IMG/VR virus record: IMGVR_UViG_2541047722_000007
Direction: 5' to 3' (one strand)
DNA length: 5,134 nt
Source of the DNA: a virus
Lineage: Duplodnaviria; Heunggongvirae; Uroviricota; Caudoviricetes
A program made the position numbers and the translations under genes. Within the stretch, counting starts at the first letter, position 1. Each line of letters opens with the position of its first letter. The notes under the pieces are model-generated. The model worked only from the letters and a program-made list of their open reading frames with translations, was not told where the DNA came from and searched no databases. Below, piece after piece: positions 505 through 5,134 of this stretch.

Positions 505-527
505 AAGAGGGGGTTATTAAGGCGTGA
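399..527 (+). pseudogene. 3' remnant of the gene that normally precedes rusA (ybcO-like); no start codon in frame
   Basis: 43-codon open stretch ...[24 protein letters not shown] with stop TGA 525-527 overlapping the rusA GTG start (GTGA), the overlap I recall for ybcO-rusA. In-frame stops at 390-392 and 396-398 close it upstream. Homology is from memory only. Confidence 0.3.
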
Positions 528-886
528 ATACCTACAGCATCACATTACCCTGGCCTCCGAGCAATAATCGCTATTACCGCCATAATCGCGGGCGCACGCA
601 CGTCAGCGCAGAGGGGCAGGCATACCGCGATAACGTCGCCCGAATCATTAAAAACGCAATGCTGGATATCGGCCTGGCTATGCCTGTGAAAATCCGCATT
701 GAGTGCCACATGCCGGATCGCCGTCGCCGTGACCTGGATAATCTGCAAAAAGCCGCTTTTGACGCACTCACTAAAGCAGGTTTCTGGCTGGATGATGCTC
801 AGGTCGTTGATTACCGCGTTGTGAAGATGCCTGTTACCAAAGGTGGGAGGCTGGAACTGACCATCACCGAAATGGGGAATGAATGA
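524..886 (+). CDS. rusA: RusA, crossover junction endodeoxyribonuclease (Holliday-junction resolvase) of DLP12-type prophage
   Basis: 120-aa product [42 protein letters not shown]... matches RusA as I recall it. GTG start at 524; only a weak/distant SD (GAGG ~13 nt upstream). Confidence 0.93.
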
Positions 887-1492: not shown

Positions 1493-1629
1493 TATGCAAT
1501 TGTTTACTAAAAGTTATTAAAAATGGGGCGTGGAAACGCCCCCAAAATAAAGGGTAATATATAACAGAAGGTTTATATAGTAAGAAGCAAGGTAGTGCTT
1601 CTAAAGGAAGTGGCTTGAGGGCTCCACTT
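1493..1629 (+). promoter_or_regulatory. Putative late promoter (PR') / Q-utilisation region immediately downstream of Q
   Basis: Placed by position only, by analogy with lambdoid phages where PR' and qut follow Q. AT-rich; I could not pin down convincing -35/-10 hexamers. Confidence 0.3.
1525..1542. other. GC-rich hairpin GGGGCG-TGGAAA-CGCCCC; candidate minus-strand terminator or pause/structure element
   Basis: 6-bp GC stem with 6-nt loop. On the minus strand it is followed by a U-rich tract (ATTTTTAATAACTTTT), which could end the porin transcript. Confidence 0.3.
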
Positions 1630-1669
1630 ATATGTTGCGGAGGCAAAGCCTCCCGCAACATATCTTTTT
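1630..1669 (+). terminator. Rho-independent terminator (tR'-like), plus strand
   Basis: ATATGTTGCGGAGGC-AAA-GCCTCCCGCAACATAT: ~15-bp stem with one bulge, followed by CTTTTT. The minus-strand reading has no U tract, so it looks unidirectional. Confidence 0.7.
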
Positions 1670-1680
1670 CGTAAGTCAGA

Positions 1681-2763
1681 TTAGAACTGATAAACCAGAC
1701 CTACAGCGACGATGTCGTCGGTATCAATACCAGCTGTTTTGGTAAACTTACTATCGTCAATTAAGTTGATTTTGTAATCAACAAAAGTGGACATGTTTTT
1801 ATTAAAGTAGTAAGTAGCACCGACATCGACATACTTGACTAAGTCTCGGTCACCATGAACACCAAGGTCTTTACCTTTTGACTGAAGGTAAGCAACAGAT
1901 GGACGCAGACCGAAGTCAAACTGATATTGTGCTACTGCTTCAAAGTTTTGTGCTTTGTTTGCAATATGGTTATTACCAAAAACGGTCATATTCTGAGTTT
2001 CAGAATATGTGGTAGCCAGATAGATATTGTTCGCATCATATTTCAGGCCTGCAGCCCATACTTCCGCATTTTTGCCGGAGGCATTGAATTTGCTCTTACC
2101 ATAGGCGACCTGACCGTCAGTGCGATCTGATTTAGCATAGGTTGCACCCACGCCGAATCCTTCATACTCATAAGTAGTGGAGAAACCGAAACCATCACCA
2201 TTGGCTTCAGTTACGTCAGTGCGGTCATTTTTACCCTGATACTGAGCAGCAAAGTTCAGGCCATCGACCAGACCAAAGAAGTCGTTGTTACGATAAGTTG
2301 CAACACCAGTAGTGCGACCAGTCATGAACACATCTGTTTGGGTCCAGGTATCACCACCGAATTCTGGCAGAACGTCAGTCCACGCACCGATGTCGTATGC
2401 TACACCGTAGTTACGGCCGTAATCGATTGAGCCGTAATCACCAAATTTCAGGCCTGCAAATGCAAGACGGGTTTTGTCTTTGGAAGAACCTTGAGATTCA
2501 GCACGGTTGCCTTTGAATTCATATTCCCACTGACCGAAACCAGTCAGTTGATCGTTGATTTGGGTTTCACCTTTGAAGCCAAGACGGGCATAAGTAGTAT
2601 CACCATCATCTGCATCATTAGAGGAGAAGTAGTGCTTGGCATTAACTTTCCCGTATAGATCCAGCTTGTTACTGTCTTTATTATAAATTTCAGCTGCCTG
2701 AGCAGACATCGCCATCAGTACTGATGCAGCTACAGCAGAAATTGCCACTGTTAATTTTTTCAT
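1681..2763 (-). CDS. nmpC: Outer-membrane porin, NmpC/OmpD/Lc type (OmpC/OmpF family), intact, 360 aa
   Basis: [23 protein letters not shown] signal peptide, then [17 protein letters not shown]...; PEFGGD loop-3 motif; C-terminal ...VGLVYQF beta-barrel signature. ATG at 2763 (the ORF track's upstream start at 2823 adds 20 unlikely residues). Confidence 0.93.
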
Positions 2764-2974
2764 TGTACGCCCTTTTTTTGAACTATTATTAAAAAATGAT
2801 GTCACTGCGCGATAAATATTCATCTAATCAATGTGATTATTTCAAGATGTAAGTTTTAGTTTCTCATTTAATTTGTGAAGTAGATCTCTATTTTTATCTG
2901 AACCTTTTCTATCTAATCCTATTCATGGCTCTTGTCTGAACAAAAATAAATCTATTAGCTAATTTATATTAATG

Positions 2975-2992
2975 GCACTTATTTATAAGTGC
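2975..2992. repeat. Inverted repeat GCACTTAT-TT-ATAAGTGC (8 bp arms, 2-bp spacer); candidate protein-binding site
   Basis: Read directly from the sequence; ~210 bp upstream of the porin start codon. Confidence 0.4.
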
Positions 2993-3131
2993 TCTATAAT
3001 TCTTTAGCTTAATTTAAACAAACTAAAAATAACATCGGAAATTATTAACTGGTTATTTGTTGAAGTTTTCTTATGCATTTGTGGTGGTGTTTTGAACACT
3101 CGGTGGCATTCTCACAAATATCATTTAGTAG

Positions 3132-3145
3132 TTTACGTACGTAAA
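3132..3145. repeat. Perfect 14-bp palindrome TTTACGTACGTAAA; candidate operator
   Basis: Exact self-complementarity read from the sequence; overlaps the candidate -35 of the promoter-like element below. Confidence 0.45.
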
Positions 3146-3159
3146 AAATTGGTTATGCT
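3132..3159 (+). promoter_or_regulatory. Candidate sigma70-type promoter (-35 TTTACG, 16-bp spacer, -10 TATGCT with an upstream TGG)
   Basis: Hexamers found by eye; a start near 3166 would give a ~55-nt transcript ending at the 3190-3222 terminator. Confidence 0.3.
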
Positions 3160-3189
3160 GTTAAGAGTGGTTACTTCGTCACACAGCTT

Positions 3190-3222
3190 AAACCCGCCGT
3201 CGAGCGGGTTTTTCCATTTTTT
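3190..3222 (+). terminator. Rho-independent terminator, plus strand, ~130 bp upstream of the holin
   Basis: AAACCCGC-CGTCGA-GCGGGTTT (8-bp stem) followed by TTTTTCCATTTTTT. No plus-strand gene lies upstream of it. Confidence 0.65.
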
Positions 3223-3351
3223 GAGTCTCGATATTAGCTGATAACCCAATACCTGAGTTATTCACTGACTCCGAATCTGTTACGTTTCTGCCTTTATTGC
3301 GATACGTAGTATCCCCTTAATTTACACCCGCTTTGTCTGCGAGGTGGGGTT

Positions 3352-3567
3352 ATGAAATCCATGGATAAGTTAACAACGGGTGTCGCCTATGGTACCTCAG
3401 CAGGTAGTGCCGGGTACTGGTTTTTACAGTTGCTCGATAAAGTCACGCCCTCACAGTGGGCGGCAATAGGTGTGCTGGGTAGCCTGGTATTTGGCCTGCT
3501 GACGTACCTGACAAACCTTTATTTCAAGATTAAAGAAGATAAGCGCAAGGCTGCGAGAGGTGAATAA
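3352..3567 (+). CDS. essD: Class II holin / pinholin (phage 21 S21-type; DLP12 EssD), 71 aa, with dual-start motif
   Basis: [71 protein letters not shown]; Met1 and Met4 give the antiholin/holin pair; two predicted TMDs; SD GAGGTGGGG upstream. Confidence 0.92.
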
Positions 3568-4064
3568 TGCCTCCATCATTACGAAAAGCCGTTGCTGCTG
3601 CTATTGGTGGCGGAGCAATTGCTATAGCATCAGTGTTAATCACTGGCCCAAGTGGTAACGATGGTCTGGAAGGTGTCAGCTACATACCATACAAAGATAT
3701 TGTTGGTGTATGGACTGTATGTCACGGGCATACAGGAAAAGACATCATGCTCGGTAAAACGTATACCAAAGCAGAATGCAAAGCCCTCCTGAATAAAGAC
3801 CTTGCCACGGTCGCCAGACAAATTAACCCGTACATCAAAGTCGATATACCGGAAACAATGCGCGGCGCTCTTTACTCATTCGTTTACAACGTGGGTGCTG
3901 GCAATTTCAGAACATCGACGCTTCTTCGCAAAATAAACCAGGGCGATATCAAAGGCGCATGTGATCAGCTACGTCGCTGGACATATGCTGGCGGTAAGCA
4001 ATGGAAAGGTCTCATGACTCGTCGTGAGATTGAGCGTGAAATCTGTTTGTGGGGTCAGCAATGA
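3567..4064 (+). CDS. rrrD: SAR (signal-anchor-release) endolysin, lysozyme R21 type (DLP12 RrrD), 165 aa
   Basis: N-terminal Gly/Ala-rich SAR domain [20 protein letters not shown]; E35, D44 and T50 present at the positions of the R21 catalytic triad; ATG overlaps the holin stop (TAATG). Confidence 0.95.
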
Positions 4065-4522
4065 ACAGAGTAACCGCGATTATCTCCGCTCTGGTTATCT
4101 GCATCATCGTCTGCCTGTCATGGGCTGTTAATCATTACCGTGATAACGCCATTACCTACAAAGCCCAGCGCGACAAAAATGCCAGAGAACTGACGCTGGC
4201 GAACGCGGTAATTACTGACATACAGATGCGTCAGCGTGATGTTGCTGCGCTCGATGCAAAATACACGAAGGAGTTAGCTGATGCGAAAGCTGAAAATGAT
4301 GCTCTGCGTGATGATGTTGCCGCTGGTCGTCGTCGGTTGCACATCAAAGCAGTCTGTCAGTCAGTGCGTGAAGCCACCACCGCCTCCGGCGTGGATAATG
4401 CAGCCTCCCCCCGACTGGCAGACACCGCTGAACGGGATTATTTCACCCTCAGAGAGAGGCTGATCACTATGCAAAAACAACTGGAAGGAACCCAGAAGTA
4501 TATTAATGAGCAGTGCAGATAG
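4061..4522 (+). CDS. rzpD: Spanin inner-membrane subunit Rz (i-spanin; DLP12 RzpD), 153 aa
   Basis: [24 protein letters not shown]-terminal TMD followed by a charged, coiled-coil-like periplasmic domain; ATG at 4061 overlaps the endolysin stop (ATGA). The GTG at 4049 in the ORF track is probably an extension. Confidence 0.9.
4281..4463 (+). CDS. rzoD: Spanin outer-membrane lipoprotein Rz1 (o-spanin; DLP12 RzoD), 60 aa, fully embedded in Rz in the +1 frame
   Basis: [20 protein letters not shown] (lipobox ending in Cys) followed by a proline-rich mature region (PPPPP, PPP); AAGGAG SD 8 nt upstream of the ATG. Confidence 0.85.
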
Positions 4523-4847: not shown

Positions 4848-5032
4848 CTTATTATCCTGCATTGTTAAAAACGGCAGAATCCTATGTGACAACAATTAAA
4901 CGATAGTTAAATGGATTGATGAAAATTAAAACTACACAGGTGGGCTCAGACTATTGGAGGAAGTTGGGGACACTCAGAATCCTGTGGAATGAAATAAACC
5001 GGTCTATCCGTCCATTACCCTTTTAGCTGCGC

Positions 5033-5134
5033 TGAACCGCCCCGGGTTTCCTGGAGAGTGTTTTATCTGTGAACTCAGGCTGCCAGATCATCGTTTCCGA
5101 TGGAAGCATAATAAGCTTTTTCTGCTTCTGCCGG
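5033..5134 (-). mobile_element. IS3 right-hand end, partial, inverted relative to the copy at 1-221; element continues beyond the 3' window edge
   Basis: 5033-5134 is the exact reverse complement of 120-221 (102 bp); starts TGAACCGCCCCGGG at 5033. Confidence 0.85.
5075..5134 (-). CDS. insF: IS3 transposase OrfB (InsF), C-terminal fragment (19 codons plus stop); 5' end outside the window
   Basis: Reverse complement encodes ...PAEAEKAYYASIGNDDLAA*, identical to the left-copy terminus. Confidence 0.8.
   Translation of the reverse strand, partial: PAEAEKAYYASIGNDDLAA

Follow-up and report, generated by a model that had tools for sequence, protein, structure and literature searches.

A probable Q-controlled late promoter, parted from gene Q by a porin insertion, upstream of the lysis genes of a lambdoid prophage

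Positions 3132-3222 of the DNA analysed here (5,134 nucleotides, IMG/VR record IMGVR_UViG_2541047722_000007, assigned to the Caudoviricetes; the whole stretch is referred to as the window) very probably form the late-gene regulatory cassette of a lambdoid prophage, composed of the promoter PR', a short leader and the terminator tR', and controlled by the antiterminator Q. Homology to a mapped promoter, a shared architecture, conservation across genera and covariation between Q and a dyad over the -35 hexamer are observed, and from these we infer the start site at this locus, the binding of Q to the dyad and Q-dependent read-through. A reading of the letters and open reading frames alone (hereafter the sequence-only reading) had offered, among other possibilities, that a porin insertion had parted a native late leader (PR'/qut/tR') from Q, and this proposal turns out to be essentially right in view of the homology, the Q partnership and the dyad covariation. 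In kind the element is ordinary, one more copy of the textbook late switch that depends on Q, and it is without annotation in every record inspected. [quoted passage not shown]

Open reading frames and matches to annotated phages identify the window as the part of a lambdoid prophage devoted to late control and lysis (Table 1), in which the late (lysis) genes S, R and Rz/Rz1 occupy 3352-4522, downstream of the cassette. Two isolated phages, ev017 and PhiR57_1, which carry Q and nmpC in the same order as the window, match the intergenic region between nmpC and S (2824-3351) at 100% identity; the figure is 92% for PA-2 and 90% for phage 434B. In the DLP12 prophage of K-12 the element is unchanged, inside a 93%-identical alignment of 3090-3351, and part of 3100-3351 is found in 2,658 of 5,426 complete E. 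coli genomes. DLP12 lacks 17 bp of the window (3286-3302), between tR' and the ribosome-binding region of the holin gene. The ends of the window form a 116-nt inverted repeat (120-235 and 5019-5134, 96% complementary), and an ORF at 45-179 resembles a transposase C-terminus; the Q-to-bor module is thus bracketed by inverted IS copies.

Table 1. Features of the window, with positions counted from its first nucleotide
Feature	Position	Strand	Basis or remark
rusA	524-886		ORF list and annotated-phage matches
ylcG	between rusA and gene Q		ORF list and annotated-phage matches
Gene Q, QuuD-like late antiterminator, 127 aa	1109-1492	+	ORF; trans-acting partner of the element
Cargo between Q and PR'	1493-3128	-	porin gene nmpC/lc with its 3' region and 5' control region
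Porin nmpC/lc	1681-2763	-	ORF and annotated-phage matches
14-bp dyad TTTACGTACGTAAA, candidate QBE	3132-3145		overlaps -35 hexamer; A-tract after it
-35 hexamer TTTACG of PR'	3132-3137	+	inside dyad
-10 hexamer TATGCT of PR'	3154-3159	+	16 bp after -35
Start region TAAGAGTGGTTACTTCGTCAC	3162-3182	+	-4 to +17, near-invariant
Predicted transcription start (A)	3166	+	7 nt after -10; by homology with Sakai Sp5
Terminator tR'	3190-3222	+	stem 3190-3197/3204-3211, U-run to 3213, second T-run 3217-3222
S21-type pinholin S	3352-3567	+	ORF; equivalents annotated in phages 21 and 434B
SAR endolysin R	3567-4064	+	ORF; equivalents annotated in phages 21 and 434B
Rz	4049-4522	+	ORF; equivalents annotated in phages 21 and 434B
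Rz1	4281-4463	+	ORF; equivalents annotated in phages 21 and 434B
bor	after Rz/Rz1	-	ORF list and annotated-phage matches
Dyad sequences set against TTTACGTACGTAAA as swap partners			AACGCGTACGCAAA, GCGCGGTCCGCAAA

Direct reading bears out the parts that the sequence-only reading had named, namely a perfect 14-bp palindrome, a promoter whose hexamers are separated by a 16-bp spacer and a terminator made of the hairpin AAACCCGCCGTCGAGCGGGTTT (3190-3211) and two T-runs, the stem of which folds at about -12 kcal/mol. It had also remarked that the terminator has no plus-strand gene upstream, and this holds, the adjacent gene, that of the porin, being encoded on the minus strand. The RNA of about 55 nt that it predicted survives as a short terminated RNA, with its length corrected to about 45-50 nt (start near 3166, end in the first T-run). 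Judged within the window alone, neither the palindrome nor the promoter match stands out from chance. Two perfect 14-bp palindromes are present against 0.36 expected, and at least one occurs in 30% of dinucleotide shuffles; the second lies at 2713-2726, within the nmpC coding region. PR' matches 8 of 12 consensus positions, which is weak and below the threshold of the promoter scan, and matches of this level occur in the window at the chance rate (14 observed, 16 in shuffles). The element is judged real because it is conserved across related sequences, and not on window statistics. The terminator scan gave no second plus-strand terminator before S. In the literature, including the supplements of an eLife Term-seq study, we found no transcript, start-site or 3'-end data for this exact locus; those supplements enter neither essD nor the K-12 coordinates of the element, where 3166 corresponds to 577,229 of MG1655 (window position plus 574,063), and genomic SELEX and ChIP papers naming essD or nmpC hold nothing of useful resolution for it.

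The closest relative is the PR' of Stx phages of the 933W and H-19B types. A sensitive BLAST search of phage genomes with 3100-3351 returned full-length matches in nmpC-carrying phages and about 300 Shiga-toxin phage records that match 3129-3213 only; this homology begins at about 3129, ends at 3213 and runs at 78-89% identity, and on the Stx-phage side it starts in the last codons of gene Q and extends about 70 bp past Q. The sequence-only reading had pointed to phage 21 and its relatives for a counterpart of 3100-3350: the Stx phages supply one, just after Q, and phage 21 does not, the DNA alignment with its PR' giving no similarity and the architecture alone being shared. In the Stx phages (933W, H-19B, Sakai Sp5 and Sp15) the homology extends from the dyad to the end of the first hairpin, and the -35/-10 geometry and the start region are those of the window. 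Sakai Sp5, for example, reads TTTACG-16-TATCAT (9/12 in the promoter scan), its dyad TTTACGATCGTAAA is likewise a perfect 14-bp palindrome that differs from TTTACGTACGTAAA in the two central bases only, and TATCAT is followed by GATAAGAGTGGTTAC and then by a GC hairpin and T7. PR' of Sp5 and Sp15 has been mapped by dRNA-seq and the 3' end of its transcript by Term-seq, 258 nt apart (Sy et al., PMC7547250). Counting 258 nt back from the last T of the tR' T-run in Sp5 leads to an A 7 nt after TATCAT, the base equivalent to 3166 of the window; since this A lies exactly 258 nt before the end of the T-run, as published, the homologous promoter has experimental support as a PR'. For Sakai a genome-version offset of 142 bp was used, an inferred value of which the 258-nt argument is independent because the 3' end must fall in the T-run. 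A start further upstream, with TAnnnT serving as a pause element, was also considered and conflicts with the 258-nt length in Sakai.

The Stx phages and the window also differ. In the former the cassette abuts the Q stop codon, with the dyad overlapping it, and the transcript runs on for about 210 nt to a second terminator, its 3' 74 nt being StxS; in the window the porin cargo lies between Q and the cassette, the extension and second terminator are missing and the cassette leads straight into the lysis genes. The window holds no StxS gene, since it lacks the functional 3' part. The Stx phages do keep an early hairpin and U7 at +24 to +50 of PR' (769-795 of the Sakai Sp5 locus L012, equivalent to 3190-3213 of the window). 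The 258-nt PR' RNA accumulates in these phages, in a paper that is silent on the early hairpin (PMC7547250), and the hairpin and U7 would therefore be an incomplete stop there.

Copies of the cassette were collected by searching the start-region core in IMG/VR and in one genome per species and were analysed by script. The cassette is represented by 131 fetched copies and is found in about 2,400-2,660 of 5,426 complete E. coli genomes. A PF06530 Q gene lies upstream, on the same strand and within 6 kb, in 110 of the 131 copies, and the distance from its stop codon to the core is either 5-40 bp or 626-2885 bp, with unrelated, mostly minus-strand genes in between. Since the Q stop is 5-40 bp from the core in relatives, 1493-3128 of the window is an insertion. 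The genera concerned are Escherichia/Shigella, Citrobacter, Enterobacter, Kosakonia, Trabulsiella and Atlantibacter, and further Phytobacter, Yersinia, Serratia, Ewingella, Tatumella and Rosenbergiella. Among the 57 unique variants, TAnnnT stands at the -10 position in 56, and all 57 have a GC-rich hairpin followed by a T-run that starts at +41 to +65, mostly at +42/+43; the hairpin passes a cut-off of -8 kcal/mol in 45. The stem sequences of tR' differ widely in distant members, with compensatory changes at 5 of 7 stem pairs (RNAalifold). The retention of TAnnnT and of a hairpin with T-run, the latter through compensatory changes, therefore argues for a real promoter and a real terminator, both under selection. 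Near-identical copies were also met on short contigs of metagenome-assembled genomes (MAGs) assigned to Chitinophagaceae, Bacillota and Erysipelotrichaceae (among L162, L175, L184 and L167); such E. coli/Shigella-like copies are likely due to mis-binning or contamination. In addition, a Chryseobacterium assembly contains a diverged copy, and the Elizabethkingia phage EKP1 (H130) a match of 34 nt.

In every variant a dyad is present at one fixed position, with its centre 15 nt before the -10 hexamer and, as a rule, an A-tract behind it, and the dyad sequence varies (TTTACGTACGTAAA, TTTACGATCGTAAA, ACGCGTACGCA, GCGCGGTCCGCA, TGTGGAATTCCA, ATTCGTTACGAAT, TGTTATAACA and TGTAATTACA). The symmetry is retained: across 12 independent types the mean arm is 4.0, a value attained in 0 of 20,000 resamplings, and shuffles average 2.39. 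When the upstream Q proteins were clustered at 80% identity, each cluster had its own dyad type, with clusters about 70-74% identical sharing one, and dyad type stood one-to-one with Q clade at a Q distance of 5 bp as well as of 2.9 kb. The types of spacer, -10 and downstream flank, by comparison, are mixed among the Q clusters, and the flank TTTTTGTACCTGTAAAC occurs in four of them. As the dyad follows the Q clade and keeps its symmetry beside a near-invariant core and amid shuffled downstream DNA, which is to be expected of a specificity determinant, we read it as the element bound by Q, and the dyad at -34 to -21 is a likely candidate for the QBE of the window. The linkage between Q and dyad could in part be co-inheritance, because cargo inserts upstream of the dyad.

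The Q protein of the window matches Pfam PF06530 (E 4e-53), which Yin et al. name the Q21/Q933W family (bioRxiv 10.1101/651190). It is 96% identical to the Q of phage 434B, which is DLP12-derived and matches the K-12 DLP12 Q in the same comparison, and 76% identical to Stx1-phage Q; its matches to the Q21 structure 6P18 and to the crystal and cryo-EM chains of Q21 are distant (E 4e-8). The sequence-only reading had called it an 82-type Q, an assignment that has to be given up: phage 82 Q (X92588, 229 aa) shows no similarity to it (BLASTP E 8.4). Belonging to the Q21/Q933W family and not to the 82 type, Q thus appears, from the sequences, to form a cognate pair with PR'. The mismatch earlier supposed between a foreign Q and a '21-type' leader dissolves with it, the dyad type being the one that fits the Q clade. 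The classic lambda qsr'/p4 hybrids presumably also used the Q specificity of this module.

Phage 21 offers the most direct comparison of parts. Its curated genome (OL657228) has, in order, the Q stop, the -35, the QBE in the spacer, the -10, the start, a pause element at +2 to +8 and a terminator at +3 to +50. The window has the same order of parts, a PF06530 Q and an S21-type lysis cassette downstream, and its terminator ends at about +47, that of phage 21 at about +50. The QBE of Q21 is a direct repeat, ATTGAGCA/AATGAGCA, in the spacer (-27 to -12), whereas the candidate QBE of the window is an inverted repeat at -34 to -21, unlike that of Q21, the only solved relative. A QBE of the phage 21 type (two copies of AWTGAGCA) was sought in 3138-3153 of the window and is absent there. 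A -10-like pause element (TAAGCT, +2 to +7) is recognisable in phage 21, and the window shows no evident counterpart. The lambda PR'/qut/tR' region with its 6S RNA and the PR' of phage 82 follow the same logic, in which a short terminated transcript is made until Q loads near the promoter, although the Q proteins of lambda and 82 belong to families unrelated to the window Q. The hallmarks of the 82 cassette (an AAA start, an extended -10-like element at +9 to +14, GCC at +15 to +17 and a pause at +25) are absent from the window.

The cassettes of lambda, 21 and 82 are defined in part by a sigma-dependent -10-like pause element, and inspection of +1 to +25 across the variants gave no conserved nAnnnT or -10-like hexamer. 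What is conserved is the start region, present in a single copy in the window (TAAGAGTGGTTACTTCGTCAC). The segment TAAGAGTGGTTAC.T.G.CAC (-4 to +17) is found as an exact pattern in every copy, in at least 12 genera of Enterobacterales, with Q proteins that are only 40-60% identical; this near-invariance is partly by construction because the segment served as the search pattern, and a looser pattern recovers limited variation. A role of the near-invariant start region in pausing or Q loading is possible. Two features within it were considered: TAAGAG resembles the TAAGCT of phage 21, yet spans -4 to +2 of the predicted start, and a 5' hairpin GUGG...CCAC (+2 to +17) shows only G-C to G.U changes and two G/A mismatches, with zero compensatory pairs. 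We tentatively propose, as an idea that may well prove wrong, that the QuuD/Q933W branch loads differently from Q21, in that a symmetric Q dimer would read a clade-specific palindrome over the -35, the 21-bp segment from -4 to +17 would replace the pause element, and the same segment would serve as a recombination joint for late modules and defence cargo among Enterobacterales prophages.

In the proposed model for the window, a sigma-70 promoter, PR' (TTTACG/TATGCT), would fire at about 3166. In a lysogen without Q, polymerase from PR' would end at tR' (3211-3214), yielding an RNA of about 45-50 nt and leaving the lysis genes silent, and polymerase from upstream promoters (2972-3000, or the reported essD +1 near 2811) would also be halted at tR'. 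Once Q protein is made, it would recognise the cassette, most likely at the 14-bp dyad over the -35, and join the early elongation complex, and the resulting terminator-resistant polymerase would transcribe S, R and Rz/Rz1. Since the inserted porin gene nmpC, together with its flanks (1493-3128), parts Q from PR', Q would act in trans, on a site 1.6 kb away. The viable phages ev017 and PhiR57_1 carry the Q-nmpC-PR' order, with no other candidate late promoter in the stretch from Q to S, and phage 434B has a DLP12-derived Q-nmpC::IS5-PR' substitution. The DLP12 lysis operon is under Q-type antiterminator control according to a statement in PMC7918800 that cites Rueggeberg 2013. Recent K-12 work gives the DLP12 lysis promoter a '+1' upstream of PR', with amplicon coordinates -121/+650. 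This essD +1 falls near 2811 of the window (4375 of the K-12 locus L013), beside the nmpC start codon and about 355 nt upstream of PR', a placement made from the -121 amplicon end and the mapped forward primer only, the primer Pdlp12Rv having no match within 2 mismatches; transcripts from there must therefore cross tR', and a published start so far upstream counts against the model.

A short terminated RNA is an expected by-product of such a cassette, and the question arises whether this RNA is instead the point of the element, that is, whether 3132-3222 is a dedicated small-RNA gene whose product of 45-50 nt acts in trans, like StxS, or in cis by controlling Q loading. We consider this unlikely, and it would be compatible with the late-promoter explanation, to which it would add. 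Terminated RNAs derived from PR' can gain small-RNA function, as StxS demonstrates (PMC7547250), the leader ends in a terminator hairpin and U-run as Hfq-binding small RNAs do, and conservation is much stronger in the start region and a large part of the leader than in the Q proteins, which on this reading would reflect RNA function. Functional StxS, however, comprises the last 74 nt at the 3' end of a 258-nt RNA, a part without homologue in the window, where the homology ends at 3213, and an Rfam scan of the whole window gave no match in 3100-3250 at E<=1. Distant genera, moreover, keep only -4 to +17 and vary in the single-stranded linker and the terminator sequence, a pattern that fits a signal at the level of DNA or polymerase better than a base-pairing seed, and the 5' hairpin, sometimes mismatched, is without compensatory change.

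It is much less probable that the element is an operator-controlled insulator, in which a repressor or host factor would bind the palindrome and the terminator would shield the lysis genes from read-through out of the porin region. There are sources for such read-through, namely plus-strand promoter-like sites upstream at 2972-3000 (10/12 in the promoter scan) and the reported essD +1 at about 2811, from either of which unmodified polymerase would stop at 3190-3213, and the GenBank record of PA-2 annotates a 'CRP site' equivalent to 3167-3187. Against this, the cassette also occurs directly after the Q stop codon, where there is nothing to insulate against, the dyad varies with Q clade and not with host or cargo, and the homologous promoter under the dyad is constitutively active in lysogens (PMC7547250). 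The 'CRP site' lies more than 340 bp from the porin start codon and has one good half-site (TGTGA, minus strand). The insulator put forward in the sequence-only reading accordingly lacks specific support, the palindrome covarying with Q and not with any repressor gene. The PA-2 record, which dates from 1986, in fact lists two 'CRP/CAP binding sites', equivalent to 2871-2891 and to 3167-3187, the second inside the PR' leader; measured against TGTGA-N6-TCACA, the latter has one perfect half and 2/5 in the other, and non-porin variants read TGTGG.

That the element is a decayed remnant, a fossil PR' with late transcription starting elsewhere (e.g. just after Q, antisense through nmpC), is hardly credible in spite of the IS-flanked prophage fragment that the window represents and the weak promoter consensus match, since the element is identical or nearly so in viable phages of the same gene order, the promoter, start-region and terminator features are all intact, and 1493-1680, between Q and nmpC, holds neither a promoter-like site nor a second copy of the cassette.

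Reading 3132-3222 as a Q-controlled late cassette gives a position to the late promoter that depends on Q in the DLP12-type lysis module, a module present in about half of complete E. coli genomes including K-12, and the position of PR' bears on how expression of essD-rrrD-rzpD is read. It would also mean that adjacency of Q and its target is dispensable. The Q-PR' junction repeatedly takes up cargo expressed in the lysogen, porins and defence systems among it. The clade-specific dyads could serve as natural specificity swaps (Table 1) for testing promoter recognition by the Q933W-type antiterminators, which control Shiga toxin expression.

The slot between the Q stop and the -35 of PR' holds inserts of 0.6-2.9 kb (loci L004, L005, L032, L060, L101 and others). 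Besides the porin NmpC, its cargo includes Kiwa (KwaB at E 2e-126 and a membrane partner), the KAP-NTPase candidate system PDC-S20 (E 1e-177), a PDC-M68A protein of the HNH type and lipoproteins, as well as several unassigned two-gene cassettes. In the window, the 3' flank of nmpC (1493-1680, minus strand) has a terminator at 1542-1525 and a long perfect hairpin at 1630-1663, the source of a spurious, sub-threshold Rfam match to sau-19; IpeX, a DLP12 RNA of 167 nt processed from the porin transcript, is reported at the nmpC 3' region. A 49-codon ORF with a TTG start (3092-3241, plus strand) spans PR' and the terminator and may be the source of the 'hypothetical protein' annotated there in several phage records; it is probably no gene, because its upstream half is unconserved in other cassette variants.
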